A stretch of DNA of 31,590 nt from Verrucomicrobiota bacterium (GTDB taxonomy: Bacteria > Verrucomicrobiota > Verrucomicrobiia > Limisphaerales > JADLHS01). The notes below the pieces were generated by a model. It made no database searches. It was not told where the DNA came from and saw only the letters and a program-made list of their open reading frames with translations. Below are positions 1,619 to 25,631 of the stretch, one piece after another; position 1 is the first letter of the stretch, and the number at the start of each line of letters is the position of its first letter. The stretch covers positions 1 through 31,590 of the forward strand of contig JANOHH010001131.1 in the NCBI GenBank assembly GCA_031406395.1, written 5' to 3'. The translations under genes and the position numbers were made by a program.

Positions 1619-2962
1619 GTGACCATGCCGCTCCAACCACCATCTGAGGCCAAACGCCTCATGCGCAATAAAACCTACGAACGCTGGCGCTGGCAAATCT
1701 TTGGGATCACCTGGCTGGCGTATGCGGGCTTCTACCTTACGCGCAAAAGTTTTTCCGTGGCGAAAAACGAATTGAAAAAGGTGGACGTGATGGGGTTGAC
1801 CAAGGGCGACATGGCCTGGATTGACGGCGCGAACTCGGTCGCCTACGCGCTGGGCCAGTTCTTGTTCGGCTCCTTGGGCGACAAATTCGGCACGCGGACG
1901 ATCATCCTGCTCGGCATGCTCGCGTCCGTTACCACCGCGCTGGCGATGGGTTTCGCCAACAGCGTGCTGATGCTGGGTGTGCTCTTCGGCCTTCAAGGCT
2001 TGTGCCAGGCCAGTGGGTGGGCGCCGCTGGCCAAGAACGTCGGCGAATTCTTCTCGCAACGCGAACGCGGCACGATCATGGGATTCTGGTGCACGAATTA
2101 TGCGCTGGGCGGCTTCCTCGCGACCACGTTGGCGGGCGTCGCCGCGCAGAAGTTTGGCTGGCGCTTCGCTTTCTTTGTGCCGGCGGGCGGCTTGTTGGTC
2201 ATCTGGGTGCTCTTCCTTTTGTTCCAGCGCAACCGGCCCGAGGATGTGGGCTTGCCCCCCATCGAACAATATCACGCCGAGCCGGAAGCTGTGCTCGATG
2301 CACGCGAGACGCCGGCGGAAGAGTTGGAAGGCTCCTGGAAAGTCGTGGGGGAAGTATTGCGCAACCCAATGGTGTGGCTCTTGGCCGCCGTCTATTTTCT
2401 GGTCAAGCCGACGCGGTATCTCATTCTCACCTGGTCACCGGTTTACATCAACGAACTGCTCGGCACGAGCACCGCGAGTTCGGGATTTCTCGGGAGTCTT
2501 TTCGATCTGGCTGGACCGGTCGGGACCCTGGCGGGTGGTATCATTTCGGACCGCCTGTTCAAGTCCAAGCGCATTCCGGTATGCGTAATTGCGTTGTTTT
2601 GCACGGCCCTGGCGATGGTCGCCTTCCGGTTTCTGCCTCATTCCCGCCTGGCCATTGGTGCCGGGATGTTTGTCATCGGCTTTCTGGTCTTCATCCCCGA
2701 CTCGCTCATCAGCGGGGCGGCGACAATTGATTTTGGGACGAAGAAAGGTGCTTCCACCGCCAGCGGGCTGGTTAACGGTTGCGGCTCCATCGGCCAAATT
2801 CTTGGTGTTACCCTTCCCGGTTGGGCGGGAAACATCGTCGGGCAAGGACAGGACATCTGGAACCCAATTTTTCTGTGGCTCGGAGTGGCACTGGCCGTTG
2901 CGGGATTGATTCTTATGCCGCAGTGGAATCGTCTGCCAGCCACCGCGAAAGCCACAACTTAG
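1619..2962 (+). CDS. MFS transporter, GlpT/UhpT (organophosphate:Pi antiporter / SLC37-like) family
   Basis: RWRWQIFGITWLAYAGFYLTRKSFSVAK, GSLGDKFGTR, GLCQASGW, ERGTIMGFW and ~12 hydrophobic segments. Exact start uncertain (1619, 1625 or 1661). Confidence 0.9.
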   Translation: MTMPLQPPSEAKRLMRNKTYERWRWQIFGITWLAYAGFYLTRKSFSVAKNELKKVDVMGLTKGDMAWIDGANSVAYALGQFLFGSLGDKFGTRTIILLGMLASVTTALAMGFANSVLMLGVLFGLQGLCQASGWAPLAKNVGEFFSQRERGTIMGFWCTNYALGGFLATTLAGVAAQKFGWRFAFFVPAGGLLVIWVLFLLFQRNRPEDVGLPPIEQYHAEPEAVLDARETPAEELEGSWKVVGEVLRNPMVWLLAAVYFLVKPTRYLILTWSPVYINELLGTSTASSGFLGSLFDLAGPVGTLAGGIISDRLFKSKRIPVCVIALFCTALAMVAFRFLPHSRLAIGAGMFVIGFLVFIPDSLISGAATIDFGTKKGASTASGLVNGCGSIGQILGVTLPGWAGNIVGQGQDIWNPIFLWLGVALAVAGLILMPQWNRLPATAKATT

Positions 2963-2983
2963 TTTTGCCGGCCACCGGTACGC

Positions 2984-5431
2984 TCAAACCATGATCTTTT
3001 CGTTTTTGGGATCGAACGGTGGTTGCAACATGGCTCGAGCGGGATATTGTTTACCCGCGAAGTCGATGGTGTATTGGCCGCTCGTGACAAACTCCGGCGT
3101 GATGATGTCGTCGCTCTTCACGTAACCGAACGCCAACGCGCGGCCTAGCGTGAACCCGTAGTAGCCTGAAGTGGTCGTGCCCATGAGCTTGCCGTCACGG
3201 AAAATGCGCTCACCGCCCCAGAGCATCGCGTCAGGGTCCTCCACCACGAAGGAGGCGAGGCGACGTTTGACCCCGGTTTCTTTTTGCTTCAGCAAAGCCT
3301 CCTTGCCGATGAAGTTCGTTTTCTTGTCCAGCTTCACCATGAAACCGAGCCCCGCTTCATAGGGGGTATCGCCGGGGGTAATTTCCGCACCCCAGGCGCG
3401 GTAGGCCTTTTCCATGCGAAGCGAATTGATGGGGTAAAAGCCCGCGTGGGTCAGTTCGTACTTTTTCCCCGCCGCTTGCAGGGCGTCGAACACTCCTTGA
3501 ATCTGATCCATGCGCGCGTGCAGTTCCCAGCCAAGTTCACCAACGTACGTGATCCGGATCATAAGGACGTTGGCGTTGGCCAGGCTGTGCCATTGGGTGG
3601 TGCTGAACGGAAAAGCTGTGAGTGAAAGGTCGGCGTCGGTGAGTTCGTTAAGCAACTTGCGGGCGTTCGGTCCCATGACGCCCAACACGCCGTAGGCAGG
3701 AGTCACATCCGTGATCGTAGCCCGCTCTTCCGGAAGGATGTGTTTGTGGATCCAATAAAAATCCCGCGTCGGCTGCCCCGAGCCGGTGATGATGTAGTAT
3801 TGGTCCTCCGCGATCCGGGCGAAACAGAGGTCGGACTCGTAGCCGCCCCGCGCATTCAGCATCCCGCTATAGAGGAATTTGCCGACGGGCATGTCCACGT
3901 GCCCCGGCGAGAGGCGGTCGAGGACGCGAACGGCGTCGCGCCCTTGGAGCATGAACTTGCTGAACGAGGATTGATCCCAGACCGCGACGTGTTCGCGCGC
4001 GGCGCGATGTTCGGCGGCGACGCAATCCCACCAATTCTGGCGGCCGAAAGAGTAAGCCATTCCCGGCTGGGTGCCTGGGCGCGGGAACCAAATAGGGCGT
4101 TCGATGGCCATTTTGCTCCCGTGGAAGGCGCCGAGCAAGTTGAGCCGATCGTACAGCGGGCTTTTGCGCGTGCCGCGGGCGCTCTCCAATTCGTAATTCG
4201 GCCAGGCCATCCGATACTGGAGGCCGGCTGTCTCCGTCACCCGGTGGCGCAGGAAATCGCGGTTGTTTTGGAACGGCGAGAAGCGGCGAATGTCCACGCC
4301 CCACAAATCGTAAGGCTGCTCGCCTGCCAGAATCCATTGCGCCAGCACCTCGCCCGCACCGCCGGCGTAAGCGAGGCTGTGGCCGTTGAAGCCCGCCGCC
4401 ACAAAAAGCTGATCCACCTCCGGCACCTCGCCGATGATGAAGTTTGTGTCGGGCGTGAAGGTTGCCGGGCCGTTGACCATTTTCTCGAAGGGCTCCTGCC
4501 CGAGCGCGGGGACGCGGTGTTGCGCCGCCTTGATCGCGTCGGCAACGTAACTCCGATCTTCCGGCAGTGGTTTGCCGGCGAAATCGGGCGGGATAGGGTC
4601 AACCAAACACGGCTTGCTCTTCTTCGGGAACGTGCCGAGGATAATCTGCCCGCGGTCGTCGGTGCGGAAATAAATCGCCGCGTCCGGATCGCGCACACAG
4701 GACAGATCGGCGCCCGCGCCCGGGACCGTTTTCGAGATGAGGTAGGGATGCTCGACCGGATACACCGGCACGTTGGCGCCGAATTGCAGAGCCAGTTGCC
4801 GGGACCACATCCCGGCACACAGAACAACCTGCTCGGCGGCAATTTCCCCTTGTGCAGTGGCCACACCGACCGCGCGGCCTTCTTTGCGCAGAATGCTCGT
4901 GACGCGTACGCCGGTCACAATGGTCGCCCCGCGTTGTTCCGCGCCTTGGGCGAGCGCGAGCGCGGCTTGCCGTGCGTCCACGCGACCCTCGGCGGGCAAC
5001 CACATGGCGCCGCGAATATCTTGCGTGTCGAGGAGCGGCCATTTTTGCTTTGCCTCATCCGCGGTGATGAGGCTGACATCCAGTCCCGAGGCCTGCGCCA
5101 GCGGCACGGCGCGGCGATACTGAATCATGCGCGCCTCCGTCTGTGCCAACACGAGCGAGCCAACCGGTTTCCAGCCGGTGGCGATGCCGGTTTCCGTTTC
5201 AAGCGCGGCATAGAGTTTGGCGCTGGCGTCGATGAGTTTGCGCAACCCCGCTTGCGGTGCGCCGCCGACCAGACCGGCCGCGAACGAAGTCGCGCCACCG
5301 CCAATTTCACCTGGTTCCAGCAGCACCACCTCGCGACAGCCTTGTTTCGCCAGGTGGTACGCGACACTGCAACCAATGATGCCGCCACCGACGATCACAA
5401 TGCGGGTTTGTTTGGGGAGGGAATGGCTCAT
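2984..5431 (-). CDS. GcvT-family FAD-dependent oxidoreductase (sarcosine/dimethylglycine dehydrogenase-like, 815 aa)
   Basis: N-terminal VIVGGGIIG Rossmann motif, TFTPD, FAO_M-like DIRRF, GcvT-like DQSSFSKF, ITYVGELGWELH, SLRMEKAYRAWG and C-terminal PPFDPKNEK. Confidence 0.92.
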   Translation of the reverse strand: MSHSLPKQTRIVIVGGGIIGCSVAYHLAKQGCREVVLLEPGEIGGGATSFAAGLVGGAPQAGLRKLIDASAKLYAALETETGIATGWKPVGSLVLAQTEARMIQYRRAVPLAQASGLDVSLITADEAKQKWPLLDTQDIRGAMWLPAEGRVDARQAALALAQGAEQRGATIVTGVRVTSILRKEGRAVGVATAQGEIAAEQVVLCAGMWSRQLALQFGANVPVYPVEHPYLISKTVPGAGADLSCVRDPDAAIYFRTDDRGQIILGTFPKKSKPCLVDPIPPDFAGKPLPEDRSYVADAIKAAQHRVPALGQEPFEKMVNGPATFTPDTNFIIGEVPEVDQLFVAAGFNGHSLAYAGGAGEVLAQWILAGEQPYDLWGVDIRRFSPFQNNRDFLRHRVTETAGLQYRMAWPNYELESARGTRKSPLYDRLNLLGAFHGSKMAIERPIWFPRPGTQPGMAYSFGRQNWWDCVAAEHRAAREHVAVWDQSSFSKFMLQGRDAVRVLDRLSPGHVDMPVGKFLYSGMLNARGGYESDLCFARIAEDQYYIITGSGQPTRDFYWIHKHILPEERATITDVTPAYGVLGVMGPNARKLLNELTDADLSLTAFPFSTTQWHSLANANVLMIRITYVGELGWELHARMDQIQGVFDALQAAGKKYELTHAGFYPINSLRMEKAYRAWGAEITPGDTPYEAGLGFMVKLDKKTNFIGKEALLKQKETGVKRRLASFVVEDPDAMLWGGERIFRDGKLMGTTTSGYYGFTLGRALAFGYVKSDDIITPEFVTSGQYTIDFAGKQYPARAMLQPPFDPKNEKIMV

Positions 5432-5480
5432 GGTTTTCCCAATTGAATCAAAGTTGTTTCCTTTTCAACCTCGAGGACGT

Positions 5481-6713
5481 TCAAGGTTTCGTGAGGCCGT
5501 AGTACTCAGCGTAAATGCGCGAAGCGCTGGCTTGGGCGCCGGGCCAGGTCCATTTTGAATCGCTAAAGCGGTTGGGGCTCAGGCTTTGGACGTAGGGCGA
5601 TGGCTTGGGGTCGAGCAGGGATTCGACGACGTGACGGCCGATGCCAGCCGAACCAGAGACCCCGTGGGCGTTGCAGCCGCCCGCCATGACGAAGCCTTTG
5701 ACTTTCTCCGTCGGCCCAATGATAAAGCGGCCATCGGGCGTAAAAGTCGGCCAGCCTTTGAAGACGCTGCGAATGCCGAGGTCCGACGCTTTGGGAAAAT
5801 TCGGGATGAGATCTTCGGCGAATTTGGCCAGGACATCCCAATCCGGCTCGATGCCGGGTGGATTTCCCTGCAACGCATATTTCCGCGGGTCGGTGTGAAG
5901 CGGATTCGACTCCCAACCACCCAGGAGCAGGGCATTGACGTCGGTGCGGATGTAAAGGCTGAGGTCAGGAATGCGGATGACCGGGAAATTCGGCGTCAAC
6001 CCCGCGCACGGGACACTGATAAAATATTCGTGGCGCACCGGAACGATCGGCAATTCCAAACCGACGAGTTTGGCGATGTGAAACGCGTGGGCCCCGGCGG
6101 CATTGATGACGGTGTCGCAGCGGATCGTTCCTTTGTCCGTCACCACGCCCGTGACGCGGCCGTCTTTCGTCAGGATTTGTTCCGCCGCCGTGTTGACACT
6201 GAACTGCACGCCGCGGCGCCCGCTCTGCGAGCAATAACTCGCGGTCAAATCATACGGCTGCAAATAGCCCTCGGTCGGACACCAGAGAATGGATTTGGCC
6301 ATGGAAAAATTCATCCCCGGCCACTTTTCTTCCGCGACTTTCGGTGTGATATACGCCGTTTCCAAACCCGCCTGATCCGCGATCGCCTTCATCCGCTGGA
6401 ATTCTTCCACCCGCGCAGCATTCAATGCCACGCGGAGCGAGCCCACCTGCCGCCAGGTCGGATTGGCCTTCGTGTCCTTTTGCAATTCGGAAAACGTTTT
6501 GACCGACCACATGGCGAGTTGGGTGCGCTCGAGGGTGGCGCGCACCTGGCCGACCAGTCCAGCTGCCTGGGCCGAGGTGGCTGCGGCAACCGATGACTCC
6601 TTTTCAATGAGGAGGATGTCGGTTTCGCCCGCCAGCGCCATTTGATAGGCCGTGCCGCAGCCGACCGCGCCGCCGCCGATAATGACAATTTTTGCGTCTT
6701 TGATCTTGCTCAT
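5481..6713 (-). CDS. FAD-dependent oxidoreductase (DAO family), dehydrogenase module only, no GcvT/folate domain
   Basis: IVIIGGGAVG, AAGLVGQVR, VINAAG, PTFTPDGRFIIG, GCNAHGVSGSAGIG. Collinear with the first ~410 aa of the 815-aa neighbour. Confidence 0.88.
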   Translation of the reverse strand: MSKIKDAKIVIIGGGAVGCGTAYQMALAGETDILLIEKESSVAAATSAQAAGLVGQVRATLERTQLAMWSVKTFSELQKDTKANPTWRQVGSLRVALNAARVEEFQRMKAIADQAGLETAYITPKVAEEKWPGMNFSMAKSILWCPTEGYLQPYDLTASYCSQSGRRGVQFSVNTAAEQILTKDGRVTGVVTDKGTIRCDTVINAAGAHAFHIAKLVGLELPIVPVRHEYFISVPCAGLTPNFPVIRIPDLSLYIRTDVNALLLGGWESNPLHTDPRKYALQGNPPGIEPDWDVLAKFAEDLIPNFPKASDLGIRSVFKGWPTFTPDGRFIIGPTEKVKGFVMAGGCNAHGVSGSAGIGRHVVESLLDPKPSPYVQSLSPNRFSDSKWTWPGAQASASRIYAEYYGLTKP

Positions 6714-6754
6714 GATATTTTATCCTGCGGTCATTGCCTGATTAAAACTTCTGG

Positions 6755-7723
6755 TCACACAGCTCCATTAAGTTTGGTGATCATTTGCGGGACAAGTTCG
6801 TATAGATCGCCGACGAGACCGTAGTCGGCCACTTCGAAAATCGGCGCATCCGGATCGCTGTTGATGGCGACGATGGTCTTGGAATTCTTCATCCCCGCCA
6901 GGTGCTGGACCGCGCCGGAAATACCCAGGGCAATGTACAGTTCAGGCGCAACCACTTTGCCCGTTTGCCCGACTTGAAATGCGTTCGGCGTGATGCCCGC
7001 GTCCACCAAGGCCCGCGAACTGCCCGTCGCCGCGTGCAGTTTGTCCGCCAAGCCACCGACCAGGCGTTCGAAGTCTTCGCTGCTCTTGATGCCGCGCCCG
7101 CCGGAGACGACGATGCGCGCTTCGGTCACGTCGGGGCGGCTGGAAAGCTTGGACTGCAGGGTCTCGAATTCAGTCTTCTTTGGCAAGGTCGCTTCATCCA
7201 TTGCTACGTTCGTGATCGTAGCGCGTTCGGCGCGCGCGCTGGCAGCCGGGTAGGCCGACGGACGAATCGTGACAATCTGCGGATTGCCACAGAGCGCCAC
7301 GGTCGCAACGACGGCTCCGGCGAAGAGCGGTCGGCGAAAACAAAGCTGGCCGTGGCGGAACTCATGTCCAATCACTTCGCTGGCCATCGCGCCCCCAAGC
7401 AATCCGGCGGCCCGCGGCAAAATATCTTTCGCGAAGGGGGTCGCCGCGGCGACCACCAAATCGAAACCGCGTTGCTTGGCCACGTCCGCGATGACCTTCG
7501 CGTAGCGATCGGCCACGGGATTGGCCAGCGCAGGATGGTCAGCAAGCAACACGGGGGCGTACGCCGCCGCATCCTGCGCGACCGCCGCGAGCGAGTGGCC
7601 GAGCAGGAGGCATTCGATGCTGCCTCGGGTCGGCTCCGCGACCGCATTGGCGAAGGCGACTGCCGAGCGGCTGCCGAGGCGGATGCCTTGGCCATCATGT
7701 TCGCAGAGGATCAGGACACGCAT
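6755..7723 (-). CDS. etfA: Electron transfer flavoprotein alpha subunit
   Basis: [50 protein letters not shown]. Start set at ATG 7723 (MRVLILCEH). Confidence 0.95.
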
Positions 7724-7733
7724 GGATTTCACT

Positions 7734-8486
7734 CTAAAGCACTTTTTCCTCGTCACGCAGTCTAACGAGCAATTCATCGAGGTTGCCGACGCGCACGCTT
7801 TTGCGCCGCGAAGGTACGGCCTCGAGGCCGAGCAATTGCAGACGCGGCTCGATCGTCACGCCAAGTTCGGCCACCGGGATGCGTTCGATGCTTTTTTTTC
7901 GCGCTTTCATGATGCTCGTCATGGAGGCGTAGCGCGGTTCGTTGAGGCGGAGGTCGGCGGTGACGACAGCGGGCAGGGGGACGCGAACGATTTCCAGCCC
8001 CGCATCGGTTTCGCGGGTCACGCGCAGGCCACCGTTGAGGAATTCGATCTTCGAGGCGAAGGTCGCCTGGGGCCAGTCGAGGAGCGCGGCGAGCATCTGC
8101 CCGGTCTGATTGAAATCATCGTCCACGCCTTGCTTGCCCATGAGAATCAAATCGGGCTGAAAACGACTGGCAAATGCCCGGAGAACGCAGGCCACGTTCC
8201 AGGAATCGAGCGGTGCGTCGCAGAGAATCAGCGATGCGTTGTCTGCGCCCATCGCCAGTGCGGTGCGGAGCTGCGGCTCGCAGGCCTCCGTGCCGACGGC
8301 CACGGCCAGCACTTCGACCTCGTCGGTGGATTTCTCCCGAATCCGCAATGCCTCTTCCACGGCGATCGCGTCAAAAGGATTCATCACGAACGGCAGTCCG
8401 TCCGTGACGATGCCGGAACCATCGGCTTTGACCTGAATCTTCTGATCCGTGTCAGGGACACGTTTGATGGGGGCGAGGATTTTCAC
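7734..8486 (-). CDS. etfB: Electron transfer flavoprotein beta subunit
   Basis: MKILAPIKRVPD, MNPFDAIAVEEALR, ALAMGAD, GKQGVDDD, LNEPRY. GTG start. Confidence 0.95.
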   Translation of the reverse strand: MKILAPIKRVPDTDQKIQVKADGSGIVTDGLPFVMNPFDAIAVEEALRIREKSTDEVEVLAVAVGTEACEPQLRTALAMGADNASLILCDAPLDSWNVACVLRAFASRFQPDLILMGKQGVDDDFNQTGQMLAALLDWPQATFASKIEFLNGGLRVTRETDAGLEIVRVPLPAVVTADLRLNEPRYASMTSIMKARKKSIERIPVAELGVTIEPRLQLLGLEAVPSRRKSVRVGNLDELLVRLRDEEKVL

Positions 8487-8592
8487 GCGGTTAAGCGTAA
8501 CGCCCCAGCGACCGGCCGTGGCAGCGCGCCTTCAGCGAAGCCGGTGACGTTGTAAAACCAGTAACTCATAAAACTGCAACGCATAGCCCCGC

Positions 8593-8703
8593 TTAGCTGA
8601 GGACGATGACTTGCTGGCGGCGCATGGCCAGTTGCTTGGCGGTGCTCAAGCCCGCGCCGCCACCACCGACGATGAGGACATTCGCGTTGGAGCGTAAATT
8701 CAT
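8593..8703 (-). pseudogene. Remnant of an FAD-dependent oxidoreductase (Rossmann N-terminus only)
   Basis: Translated by hand: MNLRSNANVLIVGGGGAGLSTAKQLAMRRQQVIVLS*. A beta-alpha-beta GxGxxG motif that stops after 36 aa. Confidence 0.7.
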
Positions 8704-8761
8704 TCCGTTGCTTCCGTTTTGTGAATCGAGAAACGAAAACAAACCTTTTCCACCCTGCGCA

Positions 8762-10078
8762 TTACAATCCCTTCCCCTTGAGCATCTCTAGGTACCAGCG
8801 CACAAAACCATCCACGTTGTATTCCTTGTAGGTCGAATACGGCCCGGGCGTAAAGGCGCTGGAATTGACGCCGCGCTGCTGGCGTTCACAAATCTCCCAG
8901 TCCTGTTCAGAGGTGAGCTGCCAGAAGGGCATCAGTTTTTCCAACTGGTAATCGCGCCCGGCCACCGCCTGCGCGTCCACCAGCCACCACACGCGGATGG
9001 CGGTGAGTTGCGGGCCGAGCGGGAGCAGGCGCGTGCTCACGGCGTGGTCGCAACTGGAATGGTTCCAGAAGTTGGGGAGCGTGCGAATCCGCAAGGTGCC
9101 GACATCGGCGTCCTGATAATCCCCCATCAACGGCGCGACACGTTTGCCATCCATGGTTTCGGACAGGTAACCGTCCACGAGCGGCGTGCGATTGGCGGAA
9201 AACCAGATGTTCTTTTCGGCATTGGGAAACGTCGTCATGCCGGTCTGGGTGTGCGTAGGGGCGAGACCCGCGGCCGCCCATTTCTTGTCGCTGCGCGCGA
9301 CCACTCCACTGATTTCCCGCTGGATGCGCGGCGTGGTGTCGTCGGCATTGTAGTGGTCGAAGTTGGCCTTGATGTATTGCGGATGATTGAGGTTGCAATG
9401 GTAGCACTCGCGGTTGTTTTCCCAAACCAGCTTCCAGTTCGCTTTGACCAAGTAATCCGTGGCCTGGGCGACCTTCGCTCGGTCGAATCCCTGCGGCTTC
9501 GCCAGGGGCGCGAGGAGTTCGTGGGCCGGCTCGAAGCTGGGTGGCTCCGCGGCCAGTGACAGGTAAATCAACCCGCCCGCCTCCCGCACGTGGACCTGCT
9601 TCAAGCCGAACTGGGATTTGTCCAGTTCGTGCATCCCGCGGCAGGAGAGCAAGTCGCCGTTCAGTCCATACGTCCATTGATGGTACGGACAAACCAGACG
9701 CGCGACGTGGCCCGCTGCCTCGTGACAAATGGGGGAGCCGCGATGACGACACACATTGTTCAGGGCATGAACCGAGCCGTCTGAACCACGAATCACGATG
9801 AGGGGATCGGCATCCACTTGCAGGGTGAAATAATCGCCCGGCTTGGGAATCTCGCAGGTATGCCCGGCAAAGAGCCAGCCGGTTCGCCAGACCCGGTCAA
9901 GGTCGGCGCGATATACCGTTTCGTCGGAATGAAAGCTTCCGGGTAACGCCCAGCCCGGACGACATTCGGCCAACAATGACTCGACCAAACCCGCCACCGC
10001 GCCGCCGACTTTGCGCCGTGGGCGCGGACGGCTTTCTCGCCGGCCACCTCCTCGCAGTTGATTTCCAGTACGCTGCAT
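8762..10078 (-). CDS. Rieske non-heme iron oxygenase alpha subunit, glycine-betaine demethylase (GbcA/BmoA/Stc2)-like
   Basis: Rieske ligands CRHRG...CPYHQW, iron site ENNRECYHC...HPQY and EQDWEICE...QRG, and WWLVDAQAVAGRDY resembling GbcA-type C-termini. Start may be GTG 9997. Substrate not certain. Confidence 0.88.
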   Translation of the reverse strand: MQRTGNQLRGGGRRESRPRPRRKVGGAVAGLVESLLAECRPGWALPGSFHSDETVYRADLDRVWRTGWLFAGHTCEIPKPGDYFTLQVDADPLIVIRGSDGSVHALNNVCRHRGSPICHEAAGHVARLVCPYHQWTYGLNGDLLSCRGMHELDKSQFGLKQVHVREAGGLIYLSLAAEPPSFEPAHELLAPLAKPQGFDRAKVAQATDYLVKANWKLVWENNRECYHCNLNHPQYIKANFDHYNADDTTPRIQREISGVVARSDKKWAAAGLAPTHTQTGMTTFPNAEKNIWFSANRTPLVDGYLSETMDGKRVAPLMGDYQDADVGTLRIRTLPNFWNHSSCDHAVSTRLLPLGPQLTAIRVWWLVDAQAVAGRDYQLEKLMPFWQLTSEQDWEICERQQRGVNSSAFTPGPYSTYKEYNVDGFVRWYLEMLKGKGL

Positions 10079-10090
10079 ATTTGCCTTTGG

Positions 10091-10135
10091 ATCGTAGGTG
10101 GATAGTTCGCCAGTCTCAATAACCTGTTTGGGGGG
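10091..10135 (-). promoter_or_regulatory. Shared box plus sigma70-like promoter for the Rieske/ETF/dehydrogenase operon
   Basis: Minus strand CCCCCCAAACAGGTTA-TTGAGA-N17-TACGAT. Confidence 0.65.
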
Positions 10136-17680: not shown

Positions 17681-17712
17681 ACTTGCGCGTGGCTAAGGCC
17701 ACGAAATCCTTG

Positions 17713-17747
17713 GCGGCCTCTGCTTGAGCGGAGGCCGCTTTTGTTTT
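17713..17747 (+). terminator. Intrinsic terminator after the PEP-CTERM gene
   Basis: Stem GCGGCCTCTGC / GCGGAGGCCGC (one G-U pair), loop TTGA, then TTTTGTTTT. Confidence 0.85.
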
Positions 17748-17779
17748 CGGGGCGGGAATCCCCCGTAATCCAACGGCTC

Positions 17780-19330
17780 ATGACCTTGAACAAAAAAGAC
17801 CAACAAGACCTGCCCGAGCTGCAGCGGGCCCGCGCCCTGTGGATCGCCAACCGTTTCGATGCTGCCGTGAAGCTCTTCGTCGAAACCGCCGCGCGGCATC
17901 CCCAAAACGTCGCGGCGCTCGTGGACACCGCCCGCGCCTTGGGCCATCGCCACGAAATCAAGCGCGCCGGGGAATATCTGGCTCGCCTCCGCACCATCGC
18001 CGCCGAGCGGAAGGATCTGCCATTCATTGTCGGCCAGACTTTCCGGATGATTCACCGCGAGGAACTTGCCATCCAGTGCTTCGAGGAATACGTGGCGGGG
18101 CGGGGCCGTCGCCATGCCGACGCGCATTTTGAATTGGCCGTGCTCTACGAGCGCCGCCACCGCGTGGCGGACGCGGAAGCGGCGGTGGCCCGCGTGCTGA
18201 AGCTCAACTCGGTTTATCACGAAGCCTCGCTCTTGCAAGCCCGGCTCTGGCGTCGGCGCGGTGAAGTGGGCCAGGCTAAAGCCCGTTTCCGACGACTGGC
18301 GGAACATGCTCAAGTCCATGTCGTCTCCCGCGCCCAAGCCTGGGCGGCACTGGCCGATATCGCGGACAAGGAGGGTGACTATGAACAGGCCGTGGAACTC
18401 ATGGCGCGCTGCAAAGACATCCAAATTGCCCATGCCCAGGTCTTCCAGCGGCATTCCGACGTGGTGCTGGGCAACCTCCAGCGCTTTAGCGAATCCGTGA
18501 CGGCCGAGGATTTTCGACGTTGGCGGGCGCCACAGAATGAGTTCGGCCCGCCCGCCCGCGTCGCGCATCTGACGAGTTTCCCCCGCTCCGGCACCACTTT
18601 GTTGGAGAATATCCTGGACGCCCACTCGGGCGTCGTCAGCAGTGAGGAACTCGCAGTCTTCAGTCGCGATATTCTCGATTCTACCTGGAAGGAGTCGCAC
18701 GAAAACACCCCGCCGACCGTCGAGGCGTTCGACCGCGTCCCGGTGGCGAAACTCAATTCCTTGCGCCGGCGTTATTTGGACGCGATGGAAGAGGCGCTGG
18801 ACGAACCCATTGGCGACCGCGTCCACATCGACAAGAACCCGACGCACACCTTGTTCATCCCGGCCTTGGTGCGCCTGTTTCCAGAATCACAATTCCTCAT
18901 CGCTTTGCGCGATCCGCGCGACGTCGTGGTCAGTTGCTACTTTCAATATCTGCCGCTCAATCCAACGAGTGTGTCCTATCTGCGTTGGGAATCCACGGCG
19001 CGGCGTTATGCCCTGGACATGGGCATCTGGCTGCGAATGCGCGAACGGCTCGATGCCGGCTCCTGGCTGGAAGTTCGCTACGAGGACGTCGTGCAGGATC
19101 TGCCGGCCGCGGCCCGGCGCGCGCTCGCCTTCCTGAAACTGCCGTGGGAGGAGGCCGTACTTGGCTATCGTGAACGCCTCGCGACGAAGACCGTGCATAG
19201 CCCTACCTATCTAGATGTCGCGCAACCCATCAACCGTCGTCCCATCGGCCGCTGGAAAAATTACGCCCGCTGGTTGGAGCCGAACTTGGGAACGCTCGAA
19301 CGGTTCGTGAAGGACTTCGGCTACGCTTGA
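17780..19330 (+). CDS. TPR-repeat plus sulfotransferase domain protein
   Basis: Helical TPR-like N-half, PAPS motifs TSFPRSGTTLL and LRDPRDVVVSCY, DKNP, VRYEDVV. No signal peptide. ATG 17780 preferred over TTG 17741, which lies inside the terminator. Confidence 0.9.
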   Translation: MTLNKKDQQDLPELQRARALWIANRFDAAVKLFVETAARHPQNVAALVDTARALGHRHEIKRAGEYLARLRTIAAERKDLPFIVGQTFRMIHREELAIQCFEEYVAGRGRRHADAHFELAVLYERRHRVADAEAAVARVLKLNSVYHEASLLQARLWRRRGEVGQAKARFRRLAEHAQVHVVSRAQAWAALADIADKEGDYEQAVELMARCKDIQIAHAQVFQRHSDVVLGNLQRFSESVTAEDFRRWRAPQNEFGPPARVAHLTSFPRSGTTLLENILDAHSGVVSSEELAVFSRDILDSTWKESHENTPPTVEAFDRVPVAKLNSLRRRYLDAMEEALDEPIGDRVHIDKNPTHTLFIPALVRLFPESQFLIALRDPRDVVVSCYFQYLPLNPTSVSYLRWESTARRYALDMGIWLRMRERLDAGSWLEVRYEDVVQDLPAAARRALAFLKLPWEEAVLGYRERLATKTVHSPTYLDVAQPINRRPIGRWKNYARWLEPNLGTLERFVKDFGYA

Positions 19331-19338
19331 CCAGGTTG

Positions 19339-20598
19339 CTATCTGGAGCCTCGGTGGGCAAGTTCAGCGGCTTGGTTCAAGCTCTTAATCCATTCGTCCA
19401 AGTTTTCGCAGTAGTCCACCAGTAGTTGGCTTTCGACCGCTTTTCGGGCGGCGGGTGGAAAAATGTCCGTGCCATGCAGTGCCCCGATGAAGGCGCCGGC
19501 AAGTTGGGGGTAAGAGTCGGTATCCTGCCCCCACTCCGTGGTGAGCGCCAGCGTGCCAAGCGGATCCCCATTGCAGAGCCTGGCGCACGCGAACATGACC
19601 ACGAACGGTACCTGCGCTTCCCACGGCCCCGTTTCGGCAAATTCCCGGTCAAACCCGGCGAAGAGTTTGGCCGGGCGACCTTCCGCTTCGCGCGCCAGGC
19701 GCGCGGCCTTGTCCAGGAACCGATCCACCTGGCGCTGGCACCATGGCACTTTGCCGAAGCGCAGCGGATCAGTTTGCCGCAGCGCCGCTTCGATCGCCAG
19801 CCAGCCGGTGAGCGGTGCGGTCTTGCTTTCAGGTTGCGCCAACGCAGCCGCGAGGCCCGCGACCAAGGCGCAATTCATGTCCCGGCCGAAACCGTTGTCA
19901 CCCCAAGCCACTTCCCAAGCTGCACGGTAGGCCTCTGCGGGTTCCTCGGGAAACAACGCCGCCAACGGGAGTAAATTCATCTGACCTACGCAGGTGGGCA
20001 GGCTGTTCCACAAGCGTTCGGGAGGCAAAGCCCGGGCGGGATCGCGTTCGCCCAAAATCCACCGGGCGGCGAGACGTATTTCTGCCAGCCAATCGGCGTT
20101 GAGTTGCGAGTAACCCGGGTGTCGAGTGGTCAACTCCTCGGGTGGCCAGTCGCAGTAAGCTTGCGCCAGATCCCGCCCGGTCAACGGCCAGCGACCGGCT
20201 TCGGTCGTCCGCCGGAGGGCCTGCAGCAGAATGAGCTTGTGCCGGCTGTCGTCCGTGATCGTGCCGGGGACCGCGTTGGTACTCCAATGCGCGTATGGCT
20301 CGGGGAGAGGTCGCAGGTGCTGGTAGGATTGGAGCCGGACCCGCTGGCGCAGTTCCGCCATGGCCCGTGCGTCGAGCCCTTCGTTCCGCTGCCAAATCTT
20401 CGGCGGCTGCGGGAGTTTCGACCATGTTTCCTTCGGCTGAAATTCGAACGGCCCACCCAGCGCATCGCCGATCAGAGTGCCGATGAGCAACCCACGAATT
20501 CGTTCGGGCCGGGCCGTTGCCTCGGCCGCGCAGGCTTCGTTCAATGATGCAGAGCTGATGCTGACCACCAAAAGAACGAGCGAAATGTGCTGGATCAT
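19339..20598 (-). CDS. ADP-ribosylglycohydrolase family protein with signal peptide
   Basis: GTLIGDALG, TITDDS, GQDTDS...LAGAFIGALHG motifs. N-terminus MIQHISLVLLVVSISSASLNEACA. Confidence 0.85.
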   Translation of the reverse strand: MIQHISLVLLVVSISSASLNEACAAEATARPERIRGLLIGTLIGDALGGPFEFQPKETWSKLPQPPKIWQRNEGLDARAMAELRQRVRLQSYQHLRPLPEPYAHWSTNAVPGTITDDSRHKLILLQALRRTTEAGRWPLTGRDLAQAYCDWPPEELTTRHPGYSQLNADWLAEIRLAARWILGERDPARALPPERLWNSLPTCVGQMNLLPLAALFPEEPAEAYRAAWEVAWGDNGFGRDMNCALVAGLAAALAQPESKTAPLTGWLAIEAALRQTDPLRFGKVPWCQRQVDRFLDKAARLAREAEGRPAKLFAGFDREFAETGPWEAQVPFVVMFACARLCNGDPLGTLALTTEWGQDTDSYPQLAGAFIGALHGTDIFPPAARKAVESQLLVDYCENLDEWIKSLNQAAELAHRGSR

Positions 20599-21114: not shown

Positions 21115-21930
21115 ATGCCGCAAGTCCGATCTATTCGAGCCCGTCCGCGCCGACGCGAGGTGGGCGCCAAACACTGGCAGCGCACCACTGGTTTTACCCT
21201 CATTGAATTGCTGGTGGTCATTGCCATCATTGCGATCCTCGCCGCCATGTTGTTGCCTGCATTGTCAAAGGCGAAAGGCAAGGCGCAACAAATTTCCTGC
21301 CTTAATAACCTGAGACAGCTCTCGCTCGGTACTCAGCTGTACATAGATGACAGCAACAACTGGTACCCGCCAATCCAGGCCACCGTCAGCGCTGGCTTCG
21401 AGACGAGTTGGCGTTCCTATCTCTTCAACTTGGTTGGAAAGAACGGACAGGTGTACGATTGCCCAACCGAAAAAGAGGAGGTTTACGCCACGGGCTCGCG
21501 TTACAAACTCCCGCCAGCGCCTCAACTCGTCGGCCAGGTGGCCGACGGTGAAATCAAGCTGCTCAGTGGCATCGGCGCGGTGAATGTTCATTGGGAAGGC
21601 GGCGGGGCACCGCCTCCGTTTGGCCGGCCGTACGAGAACAACGTCTGTCGCGCCTCCAAGATCGAGCGACCTGTCAACGTCCTGCTCTTTGGCGACGGCC
21701 ATAGCGACGTGCGCCAGGAGTATCCCAACGACCGGTGGTGGATCTGGAAATATGATGCGGCCAATGCGCCCGGATTCAACCGCGTCGTCCAGGGCGACAA
21801 AGGTGCGGTCCGCCACAGCCGCCGCTCCAATTACGCCAAGGCTGATGGCAGCGCGGCTGCGCTGGATGCCGGTCGCATCCCATGCGACCGCACCGAGTGC
21901 TGGTGGTCGGTGAAAGCCGACCCGCATTGA
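21115..21930 (+). CDS. Prepilin-type N-terminal cleavage/methylation protein with H-X9-DG motif (DUF1559-like)
   Basis: G|[28 protein letters not shown]...SCLNNLRQL and C-terminal [12 protein letters not shown]. Confidence 0.93.
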
Positions 21931-21942
21931 ACCGTTGACCGA

Positions 21943-22573: not shown

Positions 22574-22673
22574 ACTTTGCATTACAACCGCCACTCATCT
22601 CAATCTAATAATGAACTTTGGATTCCTGTAATCCAATGACAGCAAAAAACCAGACCATCAACTCAATACGTAT

Positions 22674-25631
22674 ATGCGAAAAAAATCCATCATCACACCG
22701 GTTTGTTCGGGGCTGGCGATTCTCGCGGGCTCATTTTCATTCCTCGGGACCGCCCAAGCGGTCACGCTCCTTTCCGAGGGTTTTGAAGGCCCCAGCAACG
22801 TTTTTGCCGCGCCTACCTACAACTACTCCGCCCTCTACACAACCCCGAACTTGCTGGTGCCTGCGGGTGGGCTCAAATACCTGAATGGCGGAGCGGGAAT
22901 CAGCGGCTCAGTGTCCACCACCAATTATACGGCCGGCTCCCTCAGCCTGCTCACCGGTGGGATCACTGGTGGGCAGATTGATGGTGGACTGGTCAACTAC
23001 AATCTTTACGCCCAGTTCAGCAGTTATCGGCAGCAGAACGACAATGGCACCCTTTCCGTTCAGTTCCTCGACGCCGGCAGCAGTGCGCTCGGTTCAGAGC
23101 TCCTTCTTGGCGGGGAAGCGATTGTAAGCGGGTTGGGCATGGGGATCAGCGGCTATGGTAATCCAGATTATACGGATATGCGCGACTGGGCGGCGGATTC
23201 ATTGACAGGGATCATCCCAGCGGGAGCACGGTTCGCTACCGTTAAGATCATTGAGGTGAAGTCGGCGGGTGGCGGTAACATTGATGGCTACATGGACAAT
23301 GTTAGGGTGGACATTTTTGTGGGACCAACACCCGCCTCCATCTCCTCCGTATCTCCAGCCGATAATGCCACGGGGGTCAGCCCCGGAGTGGCCGTGAGCG
23401 TGGTTCTGCAAGACGGAACGGTCGCCGTAAATAACAGTTCCATCCAATTGAGTTTTGATGGCTCGCTGGTGACCCCGTCCATCCAAAAGGCGGGCAGCCT
23501 GACTACAATCCAGTACGATCCACCGGGACTGCTCCTGCCCCTCTCGCCCCACACCTATAAAATCGCGTTCGGCAACGGTGGCGGCGCTACCCCCAACCAG
23601 ACCAACCAATTCCAGTTCGCCGTTACCGACTGGGTGGACATCGTCCTGCCGGCGCCGATCCATTTCGAGAATTTTGACGCAGTCAGCGAAGGAAGCCTGC
23701 CGGCGGGCTGGACCGCCTCGAATGTCACTACGCCGCAAACTCCTGGTCTCGACTCGCAGGACATCACTTCCGACTTCTACCTGAATTGGGCCGTGATCAA
23801 CAGCAGCACTGCCACCTTCCTTCAGACCAACAATGTCAATTACGGCTCACTCTTCACCGTCCGCCCCGACGTGGTCGTAAATGGATCATCCGTCACAAAT
23901 CTGATCAGCGGCAAGTGTATCTTGGCGGTCTCCGCTGGCCGTCTGGACACGGACATTCAGGTCCAATACTTGTACACCCGCGATTACGACCTGACCGGGC
24001 ACGGTAACATTTTCGCGTCCTTCCACAGTATTTACATCCAGAACCAAGATAGCATCGGAGCGGTGGAGTACTCGATCAACGGCGGGGCCACCTGGCTGCC
24101 CGCTCTCTACCTGCTGGATGGGCCCGATGTCATCCGCGACAGTTCCGGAGGCGTTGATGCCTCGAATACTTTCGCCACCGTTTACGCCGACGTTGCCGAC
24201 CCGGTTACCACCTTGTTTAGTGGGTCCTACGGGCAGGTCATCGGTCTCGCGCAAAACCAATGGGCCACCGCCGCGCCCAACATCAGCGCGCGCGTGAACG
24301 ACAATACCGTTGAATCCAAGCGCGTCGAAGTCGTACGGTTGCCGCAAGCCGACAATCAAGCCGCGGTCAGATTCCGCTTTGCACAATCCGGGAGCGGCAG
24401 TTGGTTCTTTGGCTTGGACGATTTCGGTATTTACAGCCTCGCAAGCACCGCGCGCCCGATCGTGGGCGCCGCCACTCCTCCGAGCCAGATTGTGACGGCG
24501 GGCAACGCGTTGACCGCGCTAACGGTTTCCCCCAGCGGAGCAATGCCCATGACCTATCAGTGGCGGCGCAATGGGGTGAATCTTGCCGACAAGACGAATC
24601 AGGTATTTTCACTGCCGACGAATCTTCAGCCCGGTGACTCCGGTGACTACACCGTGGTGGTGAGCAACCCGGGCAATTCCGCCACCAGCAGCCCGCCGGC
24701 CGTCGTGACGGTTCTGGATTCCGTTCTCGCTTTGGTCTCGGGACAGTGGGACTTCAACCAAGGAGACCTTCGCGCAACTTGTGGCAGTGACTTGGGGTAT
24801 TTTGATAGCTCGGTTCAGGCCAGCACCACGTTCGGCACGACGACCAGCTTTGGTATCCCCGATATCGGCGGGCAAGCCGCCAATGTCATGAAATTCATCC
24901 CAACCAGTGGCAACTCCGGTGGCGGGGGAGGCAATCCCACCTTGGACGCATGGGGTGGATACCGGATGTTTCACGGCACAGCCGCCAATGGCGGCGGAAC
25001 CAACGTCAATCAATACACCCTGATCTTGGATGTCCTCTATCCCTCCGTTTCAGACCTTGCGTGGCGGGCGCTGTTGCAGGCCAGCACCAACGCGACCACG
25101 GGTGGCGATGATAGCGAGTACTACCTCAACAGGGCGAACGCCATCGGGATCAGCAGCATTTACCAGGGCAACGTCACCGCGGATGTTTGGCACCGGATCG
25201 CCGTGGCGGTGGATCTCTCCGGTCCGGGGACTCACCCGGCGGTTGAAAAGTTCATTGATGGTGTCAAGGTGGGCGAACAAACCGGTGGTCTGAGCAGTGT
25301 GGATGGCCGGTTTTCCTTGAATCCAATCCTCGCCCTGCTCTTCGCCGAAAACAACGGCTACAACAGCGACGCCTTCGTGAGCAGCGTTCAGTTTCGCAAT
25401 GGCCGGCTCTCGGACACCGCCATCGCCGCAATGGGCGGGCCCGGGGCGGGTAAGATTCCCGGCGCCATTTGTGCCAGTGTCCAAGCCGGAAACGTGGTGG
25501 TCGCCTGGAGTGGCACCGTTCTCAAATCGGCAACTAGTCTTGCTGGACCTTGGAACCCCATCGTAGGCGCGAGTAAACCTTACGTCGTACCTGGCCCTTT
25601 GGCCGACAAGAAGTTTTTCCGTTCCGAGTAG
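22674..25631 (+). CDS. Secreted modular protein: domain A, SbsA/Big_5-like Ig, domain B, Ig-like, LamG-like, short C-terminal tail; no recognisable catalytic domain
   Basis: N-terminus paralogous to the PEP-CTERM protein, SVSPADNATGV Ig-like start, domain B/Ig/LamG paralogous to the 1.5-kaa protein, tail ...WNPIVGASKPYVVP...KKFFRSE. Confidence 0.88.
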   Translation: MRKKSIITPVCSGLAILAGSFSFLGTAQAVTLLSEGFEGPSNVFAAPTYNYSALYTTPNLLVPAGGLKYLNGGAGISGSVSTTNYTAGSLSLLTGGITGGQIDGGLVNYNLYAQFSSYRQQNDNGTLSVQFLDAGSSALGSELLLGGEAIVSGLGMGISGYGNPDYTDMRDWAADSLTGIIPAGARFATVKIIEVKSAGGGNIDGYMDNVRVDIFVGPTPASISSVSPADNATGVSPGVAVSVVLQDGTVAVNNSSIQLSFDGSLVTPSIQKAGSLTTIQYDPPGLLLPLSPHTYKIAFGNGGGATPNQTNQFQFAVTDWVDIVLPAPIHFENFDAVSEGSLPAGWTASNVTTPQTPGLDSQDITSDFYLNWAVINSSTATFLQTNNVNYGSLFTVRPDVVVNGSSVTNLISGKCILAVSAGRLDTDIQVQYLYTRDYDLTGHGNIFASFHSIYIQNQDSIGAVEYSINGGATWLPALYLLDGPDVIRDSSGGVDASNTFATVYADVADPVTTLFSGSYGQVIGLAQNQWATAAPNISARVNDNTVESKRVEVVRLPQADNQAAVRFRFAQSGSGSWFFGLDDFGIYSLASTARPIVGAATPPSQIVTAGNALTALTVSPSGAMPMTYQWRRNGVNLADKTNQVFSLPTNLQPGDSGDYTVVVSNPGNSATSSPPAVVTVLDSVLALVSGQWDFNQGDLRATCGSDLGYFDSSVQASTTFGTTTSFGIPDIGGQAANVMKFIPTSGNSGGGGGNPTLDAWGGYRMFHGTAANGGGTNVNQYTLILDVLYPSVSDLAWRALLQASTNATTGGDDSEYYLNRANAIGISSIYQGNVTADVWHRIAVAVDLSGPGTHPAVEKFIDGVKVGEQTGGLSSVDGRFSLNPILALLFAENNGYNSDAFVSSVQFRNGRLSDTAIAAMGGPGAGKIPGAICASVQAGNVVVAWSGTVLKSATSLAGPWNPIVGASKPYVVPGPLADKKFFRSE

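Follow-up and report, generated by a model that had tools for sequence, protein, structure and literature searches.

A stretch of 31,590 nt from a Verrucomicrobiota bacterium (contig JANOHH010001131.1 of assembly GCA_031406395.1), the whole of which is referred to here as the window, carries between positions 1619 and 25631 a set of catabolic genes together with genes for a regulator and for secreted and pilin-like proteins. We suggest, with the chances evenly balanced in our view, that the catabolic core, made up of a permease, a Rieske oxygenase, two flavoenzymes and an electron transfer flavoprotein (ETF), imports and fully N-demethylates a quaternary amine that bears a phosphate or a phosphonate group. 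As substrate, phosphocholine and its near-isosteric C-P analogue, 2-(trimethylammonio)ethylphosphonate, are the foremost candidates. The demethylation of quaternary amines is in itself already known; the new part is the class of substrate and the unusual conserved companions of the core.

A first-pass annotation of the same DNA had proposed a locus for the use of phosphorylated quaternary amines. When the 27 open reading frames (ORFs) of at least 100 amino acids (aa) were listed and compared with Pfam, and selected ones also with NCBIfam, each component that it had named was recovered, yet its interpretation stands only in part: the conserved catabolic module is borne out, the betaine route and the assignment of a phospholipase C (PLC)/AcpA-type enzyme are not. 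The region starts with the permease gene and ends with the gene of a 985-aa protein, and its core genes are the following.

1619-2962, plus strand: permease of the major facilitator superfamily (MFS), PF07690 (E 3.8e-50)
2984-5431, minus strand: four-domain flavoenzyme of the dimethylglycine/sarcosine dehydrogenase (DMGDH/SARDH) type, 815 aa, with DAO (E 9e-73), FAO_M, GCV_T (E 2.9e-66) and GCV_T_C
5481-6713, minus strand: FAD enzyme with a DAO domain only, 410 aa, PF01266 (E 1.4e-58)
6755-7777, minus strand: ETF alpha, ETF_alpha (E 6.4e-33) and ETF (E 6.1e-31)
7734-8486, minus strand: ETF beta, ETF (E 2.8e-39)
8762-10078, minus strand: Rieske oxygenase, Rieske (E 6.9e-18) and Ring_hydroxyl_A (E 1.5e-33)

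The minus-strand genes belong to an uninterrupted run that begins with the regulator gene and the gene of a 1545-aa secreted protein, and continues through the Rieske, ETF beta, ETF alpha, DAO-only and four-domain genes with gaps of 157, 122, 275, -44 (an overlap), 41 and 49 bp. The MFS gene lies outside this operon and converges on it, which corrects the first-pass annotation.

Judged by its motifs, the Rieske protein belongs to the group V oxygenases, the quaternary ammonium type. Its motif N222-R-E-C-Y-H-C-N-L-N-H232 contains the bridging E224, the Cys-X-X-Cys pair C225/C228 and the iron-binding H227/H232, and a bridging Glu combined with Cys-X-X-Cys is the signature that the accessible part of PMC10952381 ties to quaternary ammonium substrates in group V Rieske enzymes. 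C110, H112, C130, H133, H227 and H232 as well as E224 and the Cys-X-X-Cys pair are invariant over 63 aligned sequences from both of the clades described below. The best NCBIfam match of the protein is GbcA (NF058607; 419.5 bits, E 1e-125), whose cut-off of 670 is not reached, and its closest solved relatives are 3n0q (E 1.4e-90) and the stachydrine demethylase Stc2 (3vca, E 2.4e-86). On these scores the protein is no GbcA equivalog. Since relatives align only from about residue 32, its Arg/Gly-rich first 31 residues are probably untranslated and translation would start near residue 32.

A scan with the Rieske protein, restricted to one genome per species, gave at least 599 matching stretches, of which the best 80 loci were kept. 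In 23 of these (L001 to L023; 7 Verrucomicrobiota, 5 Planctomycetota and 11 Chloroflexota) the Rieske protein is 55-75% identical to that of the window, and in the remaining 57, among them the Pseudomonas/Halomonas GbcA group, it is 39-47% identical. A neighbour-joining tree of 78 sequences, made without 3 loci of less than 85% coverage, places the window and its group in a single clade, separate from the Pseudomonas/Halomonas GbcA group. The two groups differ at many conserved positions. Position 394 is Arg in 40 of 41 members of the GbcA group, in Stc2 and in 3n0q, and Trp in all 22 of 22 clade members; clade-specific basic residues are found at K418, R332, R200, R362 and K237. Metagenomic relatives are plentiful, all 120 matches listed being at least 69% identical. 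The first-pass description of a GbcA-like N-demethylase is thus right in that GbcA is the best match and the group V motif is present, and does not hold with regard to the equivalog cut-off and the separate clade.

The most obvious alternative is an ordinary cluster for glycine betaine or another carboxy-betaine, next to which the permease and secreted genes would be unrelated neighbours. It can draw on GbcA as the best NCBIfam match, on Stc2, a betaine demethylase, and 3n0q as the closest solved relatives, on a DMGDH architecture with ETF that matches the textbook pathway, and on the naming of close relatives as glycine betaine enzymes by some sources. However, the score falls far short of the 670 bits set for the equivalog, the Rieske clade stands apart and has Trp in place of Arg394 in 22 of 22 members, and a GbcB-type reductase is missing, no ferredoxin-reductase Pfam match being present in the 27 window ORFs or in the 17 related loci annotated with Pfam (ORFs of at least 100 aa). 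Moreover, the conserved transporter is of the phosphate type and not of the BCCT or ProU type, and genes for phosphonate metabolism (Phn), kinases, DeoR regulators, a glycerophosphodiester phosphodiesterase (GDPD) and phosphatases recur beside the clade. We therefore regard an ordinary carboxy-betaine cluster as quite improbable, and the route from betaine through dimethylglycine and sarcosine to glycine given in the first-pass annotation is probably wrong, as the neighbouring genes suggest a phosphorus-bearing amine instead.

These neighbours were analysed by comparing the window proteins with all 80 loci by tblastn and by Pfam annotation of the 12 Verrucomicrobiota and Planctomycetota loci (the PVC loci in what follows) and of 5 Chloroflexota loci; genes in the loci were our own greedy ORF picks, made by a longest-ORF rule combined with a filter on GC content at third codon positions, and selected locus proteins were additionally scored against NCBIfam. 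Complete loci combine one Rieske gene with two flavoenzyme genes (DAO and DMGDH-type, DAO and a second DAO type, or two of the DMGDH type), an arrangement that fits three successive demethylations. An ortholog of the DAO-only enzyme (53-68% identity) occurs in 11 of the 12 PVC loci, the twelfth (L020) ending inside the Rieske gene; the second DAO type is found in 4 of 12 and the four-domain enzyme in 3 of 12 (L002, L012 and L023; 48-53% identity). ETF orthologs are present in three PVC loci (L001, L006 and L021; ETF beta 60-67% identity), and MFS orthologs of 41-79% identity lie at the Rieske gene in six of the 12 (L001, L003, L010, L012, L020 and L023). The earlier view that the catabolic genes and a phosphate-type permease make up one module is supported by these DAO and permease counts.

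What speaks for phosphorus in the substrate is the company in which these genes are found. In L010 a single strand carries PhnY, PhnW, MFS, Rieske, DAO and DAO in this order, and in L023 PhnA, PhnY and PhnW are followed by MFS, a DUF5690 protein, Rieske, a P-loop kinase, DAO and the four-domain enzyme. The Phn proteins of L023 score 528.1 bits (PhnA, cut-off 407.55), 633.8 bits (PhnY, cut-off 635.65) and 545.8 bits (PhnW, cut-off 400.8), and the two loci occupy different places in the tree. Elsewhere a gene of the choline kinase family follows DAO (L019), GDPD and alkaline phosphatase genes are divergent from the operon (L021), or a gene for an MttB-family methyltransferase stands between DAO and MFS (L001). 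By tblastn, choline-kinase-like genes are found in 9 of the 23 loci, namely L019 and 8 of the 11 from Chloroflexota, four of these with at least 41% identity, and MttB-like genes in 12 of the 23, namely L001 and all 11 from Chloroflexota. A DeoR regulator is encoded in all five annotated Chloroflexota loci, a PfkB kinase in four and a Choline_kinase match in three; DeoR regulators usually sense phosphorylated effectors. With a phosphate-type permease, kinases, DeoR, phosphoesterases and aminoethylphosphonate genes nearby, the substrate would be expected to carry a phosphorus group.

The Chloroflexota loci have some features of their own. In L005, L008, L015, L017 and L018 (about 6500-18000) DeoR, DMGDH-type, Rieske, PfkB (except in L015) and MttB-like genes follow one another in this order, so that O2-dependent and methyltransferase-type demethylases are encoded side by side; L005 has a second MttB gene with a B12-binding protein. 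In the four loci other than L015 a 312-aa protein of no known family and then an APC permease are encoded, in L008, L017 and L018 a solute-binding protein of the AepX family (PF13343) comes after the permease, and a choline-kinase-like gene and a second four-domain enzyme are often close by. In L002, a PVC locus, a 484-aa protein is encoded between the DAO and DMGDH-type genes (10748-12202), with a weak match to PF01676 (E 3.1e-06); this alkaline-phosphatase-superfamily-like protein has no NCBIfam match and no solved relative.

But which phosphorus compound would it be? For phosphocholine there is a precedent in Eubacterium limosum where, according to the accessible part of PMC12155760, choline is phosphorylated first and an MttB-family enzyme accepts phosphocholine but not choline; its authors argue that such MttB-family demethylases evolved on acidic quaternary amines, and the same logic would hold for a GbcA-like ancestor. 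This precedent, together with the kinase and MttB neighbours (9 and 12 of 23 loci), now lends substance to an aside in the first-pass annotation on a possible direct action of the Rieske enzyme on phosphocholine, and the neighbouring genes argue for a phosphorus-bearing N-methylated substrate over glycine betaine. An N-methylated aminoethylphosphonate (AEP), as hinted at by PhnW, PhnY and PhnA in L010 and L023, had not been considered there.

As a variant of our proposal, then, the substrate could specifically be a phosphonate, that is N-methylated 2-AEP (mono-, di- or trimethyl), which would be released from phosphonolipids, enter the cell through an AepP-type permease and undergo demethylation to AEP or oxidation to phosphonoacetaldehyde, with PhnWYA or PhnX elsewhere finishing the breakdown. 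In L010, PhnW and PhnY immediately precede MFS-Rieske-DAO on one strand, and in L023 PhnA, PhnY and PhnW lie at MFS and Rieske; both arrangements are in its favour, as are the equivalog-level Phn scores and the different tree positions of the two loci. Precedents exist as well: AepP is a GlpT-like MFS protein that imports AEP and was found in Verrucomicrobia next to phn genes (accessible part of PMC8316502), and PbfB, PbfC and PbfD are PF01266 (DAO-family) enzymes that oxidise N-methyl-AEP, with PbfD relatives in PVC bacteria (accessible part of PMC10590968). On the other hand, Phn genes occur in only 2 of the 23 loci and not in the window, and the choline-kinase-like (9 loci) and PfkB (4 loci) kinases would have no obvious role. 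Furthermore, the aminophosphonate oxidoreductase family TIGR03329 is not among the best 25 of 32 NCBIfam matches (E at most 0.001) of the window DAO enzyme, and the second DAO type of L001 reaches 41.1 bits against its cut-off of 632.8. We consider restriction to phosphonates unlikely. As the Phn and kinase signals lie in separate loci, they do not decide which of the two compounds the window enzymes prefer.

The permease is in line with a phosphorus-bearing substrate of either kind. Its best NCBIfam match is the organophosphate:Pi antiporter (OPA) family TIGR00881 with 245.3 bits, followed by the D-galactonate/ACS subfamily with 161.2 bits, and its best solved relative is GlpT (1pw4, E 7.7e-48). 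In the alignment to 1pw4, R42 and R266 match GlpT Arg45 and Arg269, which we take to be the phosphate-binding residues, while K80 of GlpT is replaced by Q80 and H165 by Y161. For AepP, PMC8316502 states in its accessible part that residues binding Pi are retained and those for the glycerol moiety are not. Co-localisation with phn genes as known for AepP is seen for the MFS orthologs of L010 and L023, and not for those of the window, L001, L003, L012 and L020.

The two flavoenzymes, which the first-pass annotation had taken for two DMGDH/sarcosine-dehydrogenase-like enzymes, are both present, but they differ in architecture. The 815-aa enzyme shows all four DMGDH/SARDH domains above their cut-offs, whereas the 410-aa enzyme consists of the DAO domain only; they are 29% identical over 370 residues. 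Among solved structures, the DAO-only enzyme best matches the FAD domains of dimethylglycine dehydrogenase (5l46 and 4pab, with E about 2e-47).

For the core we propose the following course of events. The GlpT/AepP-like permease would take up the phosph(on)o-amine, and the group V Rieske oxygenase would hydroxylate one N-methyl group, which is then lost as formaldehyde in the first demethylation. The folate-binding DMGDH-type flavoenzyme would remove the second methyl group, converting a tertiary into a secondary amine, and the DAO-only flavoenzyme would oxidise the remaining secondary amine in a third step, both handing their electrons to ETF. Phosphoethanolamine or AEP would result, to be processed by genes outside the window. 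Among the relatives, loci with the permease may import the charged compound itself, those with kinases may import the alcohol and then phosphorylate it, and those with PhnWYA may channel the phosphonate product onward. The first-pass annotation had noted that the window holds neither betA/betB nor a TonB receptor, and indeed no Aldedh/GMC-type and no TonB-receptor match was obtained with the 27 ORFs.

The operon is accompanied by genes whose products are predicted to be regulatory, secreted or pilin-like:

10201-14838, minus strand: 1545-aa secreted modular protein with a jelly-roll-like module, Ig, LamG-like module, YncE-type propeller and PF04185
10201-11520, minus strand: phosphoesterase domain of the 1545-aa protein, residues 1107-1545
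14996-16339, minus strand: LuxR/GerE-type regulator, GerE (E 4.4e-17)
16970-17680, plus strand: PEP-CTERM protein, 236 aa, TIGR02595
17741-19330, plus strand: tetratricopeptide repeat (TPR)-sulfotransferase, Sulfotransfer_3 (E 1.8e-32)
19339-20598, minus strand: secreted protein of the ADP-ribosylglycohydrolase (ARH) family, PF03747 (E 2e-27)
21115-21930, plus strand: prepilin-like H-X9-DG protein, N_methyl (E 1.4e-08) and TIGR02532
22674-25631, plus strand: 985-aa secreted modular protein, weak Ig_3 and Reelin subrepeat-B matches

The sulfotransferase and ARH genes, which lie between the regulator and prepilin genes, had been omitted from the first-pass annotation.

Comparison with the related loci indicates that the operon, the regulator, the prepilin-like protein and a lectin-like surface protein are linked across considerable divergence. 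In L003 and L013 an ortholog of the regulator (42-44% identity) is encoded immediately upstream of the Rieske gene. The regulator combines its GerE domain with a match to Response_reg of 23.8 bits, below the cut-off of 30.2, and with an N-terminal domain that matches no family. Asn290, invariant in the regulators of the window, L003 and L013, occupies what we take to be the site of the phospho-acceptor Asp in receiver domains, so that a pseudo-receiver type is indicated, and this LuxR-type regulator probably controls the operon. An ORF that overlaps the start of the regulator gene (16264-16806, minus strand) has no family match and was rejected as a real gene.

The prepilin-like protein matches TIGR02532 with 28.2 bits (cut-off 16.3), carries G-F-T-L-I-E at residues 26-31 and, near its C-terminus, a 13-letter H-X9-DG string; DUF1559 (PF07596) scores 16.7 bits in the window protein (cut-off 23.3) and 29.5 bits in the L003 ortholog. 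Full-length orthologs with an identical H-X9-DG string are encoded in L003 (67% identity) and L013 (59%), and paralogs of 32-34% identity adjoin the Rieske gene in L001 and L002. In a motif scan of 207 kb of PVC sequence, four of six prepilin genes lay no more than 2.1 kb upstream of a Rieske start (binomial P 0.0036, relatedness being ignored). An atlas search returned as relatives only proteins of this same kind of Verrucomicrobiota cluster.

The surface proteins are related to one another. The PEP-CTERM protein (TIGR02595, 27 bits, cut-off 16) is paralogous to the N-terminal part of the 985-aa protein, with 64% identity over 225 residues, and the N-terminus of a 768-aa protein in L013 is 34% identical to it; the 985-aa and 1545-aa proteins end without a PEP-CTERM signal. 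Between the two large proteins, residues 57-644 of the 1545-aa one and residues 321-929 of the 985-aa one show 43.8% identity; for the 985-aa protein Pfam and NCBIfam gave no catalytic family match. A complete 1016-aa protein of L003 shares 42-47% identity with the module common to both large window proteins (47% with residues 59-711 of the 1545-aa protein, 42% with residues 219-959 of the 985-aa protein) and has no phosphoesterase. By the terms of the first-pass annotation, its view would fall if the operon and the surface genes were never found together in relatives; the prepilin, LuxR and surface orthologs of L003 and L013 show that they are. We would guess that the prepilin-like and Ig/LamG proteins capture the substrate.

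Whether the TPR-sulfotransferase is a member of the unit is uncertain; relatives of it are encoded about 6-7 kb from the Rieske gene in L013 (1884-3464, 53% identity) and L006 (3522-5186, 38%). The ARH-family protein has a signal-peptide-like N-terminus and is thus apparently secreted, and its gene is preceded, with a 4-bp overlap, by a 123-aa ORF; none of the 80 loci gave a tblastn relative of either.

The gene of the 1545-aa protein lies 122 bp upstream of the Rieske gene on the same strand. The protein has a hydrophobic N-terminus and a weak LamG match, and its residues 1168-1432 match PF04185 (E 2.8e-13, 50.2 bits, cut-off 23) at profile positions 100-356 of 356, which places the phosphoesterase domain in this family as a distant member. 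No PC-PLC model is among its 9 NCBIfam matches, and AcpA (TIGR03397) scores 31.9 bits against a cut-off of 362.75. In domain numbering, E41/N42, S92/D94/G95/H96, D235/H236, E276/D277/D278, D284 and D287/H289/R290 are invariant over 31 aligned sequences, and by analogy we assume Ser92 to be the nucleophile. A search of solved structures by sequence gave two weak PLC matches (E 2.5e-05 and 0.0026) that cover the terminal motifs. An AlphaFold model of the domain (pLDDT 77.7, pTM 0.82) has as its best fold matches AcpA (2d1g), the glycerophosphoethanolamine (GPE) ethanolaminephosphodiesterase of Streptomyces (8yk5) and the PLCs 8k3g, 9gy2 and 9gye. Of the PLC/AcpA-type phosphoesterase seen in the first-pass annotation there thus remains the membership in PF04185; the domain falls into neither curated subfamily.

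By tblastn the phosphoesterase domain is absent from all 23 loci. In closer relatives its link to the operon is indicated indirectly, through coincidences of contig size, which are its sole support: contig sizes common to the relatives of the Rieske protein (116 listed) and of the phosphoesterase (238 listed) number six (3819, 4240, 19834, 22508, 134979 and 388046) against about 1.7 expected, and above 10 kb four against 0.08 expected. The propeller-phosphoesterase family itself is very large, with at least 7975 proteins (849-2704 aa) at E of at most 1e-20 among 8000 candidates scored, named by NCBI 'bifunctional YncE family protein/alkaline phosphatase family protein'; many of these relatives reach a length of about 2100 aa and contain LamG domains as well as autotransporter-associated beta-strand repeats. 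The phosphoesterase domain has thousands of relatives, most of them joined to a propeller. Our literature search returned no functional study of this architecture, and we know of no studied member. We imagine that a propeller and a PF04185 phosphoesterase were added to one of the surface proteins in this lineage, and that the phosphoesterase may release the head group extracellularly from lipids or glycerophosphodiesters, a step that has the least support of all in the proposal.

It is also conceivable that, whatever the substrate, the secreted and pilin-like genes (those of the 1545-aa, 985-aa, PEP-CTERM, prepilin-like, sulfotransferase and ARH proteins) have no functional link to the operon and lie near it through common descent and because Verrucomicrobiota carry genes of this sort at high density. 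The absence of the phosphoesterase domain from the 23 loci and of relatives of the ARH protein and the 123-aa ORF from any locus would agree with this, as would the position of the window prepilin gene, 11 kb from the Rieske gene and on the opposite strand. In addition, prepilin-like genes of such kind form many clusters in Verrucomicrobiota, and the very large family of the 1545-aa protein makes chance neighbours plausible. However, L003 and L013 have orthologs of the prepilin (59-67%), the regulator (42-44%) and the surface protein (42-47%) on the flanks of the operon, and this arrangement has been kept although the regulator has diverged to about 43%. The prepilin motifs upstream of Rieske genes, the co-directional 1545-aa gene at a distance of 122 bp and the excess of shared contig sizes point in the same direction. 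An absence of any functional link falls short of even chances, in our estimate, but is a serious contender.

The proposal that the core demethylates a phosphorus-bearing quaternary amine has to be weighed against a number of points. GbcA is the best single family match of the Rieske protein (E 1e-125), some sources name its close relatives 'glycine betaine catabolism A' or 'glycine betaine monooxygenase A', and the 27 ORFs of the window include no reductase gene for this enzyme. The MFS score of 245.3 bits is below the TIGR00881 cut-off of 407.75 and below every curated OPA cut-off, and the gene is transcribed convergently to the operon. Nor is there a kinase, MttB or Phn gene among the 27 ORFs; in the related loci Phn genes (phosphonate) and kinases (phosphate ester) hint at different compounds and never share a locus, and these kinases, of the choline-kinase/APH or PfkB types, belong to other families than MthK of E. 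limosum. The phosphoesterase domain, absent from all 23 loci, reaches in its fold matches only TM 0.41-0.49 at 12-16% identity, and its presumed active-site loops (residues 89-120 and 279-288) are modelled at low confidence. The locus counts are not independent, the loci being phylogenetically related, and the tree carries no support values. Promoter-like sites in 1300-17200 (5 against 3.9 expected) and terminator-like sites (16 against 20.2 expected) are no better than in shuffled sequence, which leaves the limits of the operon undefined. Finally, the neighbour evidence comes from one context scan, and all proposals made here were derived from sequence and none from experiment.

Outside the region, positions 1-1618 hold five ORFs of 121-162 aa without a Pfam match above cut-off, three of which were also run against NCBIfam with zero matches. 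Downstream of it are genes for a glycine-tRNA ligase (GlyRS), an AI-2E-family transporter, DUF2127, LarB and LarC. A 976-aa ORF at 25646 was rejected as a single gene, since the GlyRS match begins only at residue 320; about 950 bp between the 985-aa gene and glyS (25646-26602) are without a Pfam, NCBIfam or Rfam match. In the GlyRS gene (26603-28576) the 454-position profile NF003211 is stretched over 651 residues (320-970), so that the ligase appears to have roughly 200 extra residues as insertions. The nickel-pincer cofactor genes follow at 30245-31590, with a LarB match of 306.3 bits from residue 54 and the start of LarC cut by the window end. An Rfam scan of the whole window gave 0 matches at the gathering threshold.

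Phosphocholine and methylated AEPs are abundant lipid head groups. Known routes for choline first remove the phosphate and then oxidise choline to betaine. A literature search that covered few subscription journals returned no paper on a Rieske oxygenase acting on phosphocholine or on methylated AEPs, nor any on a Rieske-based pathway for phosphocholine or trimethyl-AEP. If the proposal is true, the stripping of three methyl groups with the phosphorus group kept would constitute a new branch of carbon, nitrogen and phosphorus cycling in hard-to-culture soil and freshwater phyla (Verrucomicrobiota, Planctomycetota and Chloroflexota), would correct the likely mis-annotation 'glycine betaine catabolism A' and would provide a starting point for working out what prepilin-like H-X9-DG proteins and the large propeller-phosphoesterase family do. 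If the prepilin-like protein does capture substrate, this would be the first concrete function for a member of the huge DUF1559/H-X9-DG family. That there is, more broadly, a widespread aerobic group V Rieske pathway that acts directly on phosphocholine-type head groups, both phosphocholine and its phosphonate analogue, and is served in Verrucomicrobiota by dedicated prepilin-like and lectin-like capture proteins, which in this lineage would cleave the substrate as well, seems doubtful to us at present.

With the polysaccharide utilisation loci (SusC/SusD), to which the first-pass annotation likened it, the region shares a layout of surface binding or hydrolysis genes, a transporter, catabolic enzymes and a dedicated regulator, and the comparison is an analogy only: the 27 ORFs contain no TonB-dependent receptor, SusC- or SusD-type match, the substrate would not be a glycan, and a prepilin-like protein and Ig/LamG proteins make up the surface part. 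The PF04185 enzymes (AcpA, PlcH/PlcN, the fungal and plant non-specific PLCs and the Streptomyces GPE phosphodiesterase) share the E-N-x-x-x-D and D-H-V-D-G-H-R motifs with the window domain, which is set apart from them by the low identity and TM values given above and by its fusion to propeller and lectin-like modules.

Closer in chemistry is the system of GbcA/GbcB with DgcAB/DMGDH, sarcosine oxidase and ETF in Pseudomonas, Halomonas and Chromohalobacter, which has the same succession of Rieske and flavin-dependent demethylation, the same acceptor ETF and the same metal and Cys-X-X-Cys motifs. The window differs from it in the 39-47% identity of the Rieske protein (over the 57 loci that include the GbcA group), in the lack of GbcB, in other conserved pocket residues and in its phosphate-type permease, and the neighbours of its clade suggest a phosph(on)ate and not a carboxylate.

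The iron oxygenases of trimethyl-AEP breakdown are presumably TmpA and TmpB. In the accessible part of PMC10590968 two iron oxygenases that yield glycine betaine form the only route described for trimethyl-AEP, no FAD enzyme acts on the quaternary form and the word 'Rieske' does not occur; the text supplements of PMC8316502 contain none of the words 'Haloferula', 'Rieske' and 'Verrucomicrobia'. With AEP catabolism (AepP, PhnWYA/PhnWX and PbfB/C/D) the clade has in common the GlpT-like MFS protein, the PF01266 flavoenzymes and, in L010 and L023, the Phn genes joined to them, whereas the window has no Phn genes.

The MthK/MthB/MthC/MthA system of E. limosum (accessible part of PMC12155760) resembles the proposed pathway in that phosphocholine is demethylated, and MttB and kinase genes accompany 12 and 9 of the 23 Rieske loci. 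The window, however, has neither a kinase nor an MttB gene, and the kinases of its relatives, of the choline-kinase/APH or PfkB types, are not MthK relatives. Moreover, the system is anaerobic and cobalamin-dependent and removes one methyl group only, whereas in the window an O2-dependent Rieske oxygenase and two flavoenzymes would remove all three.

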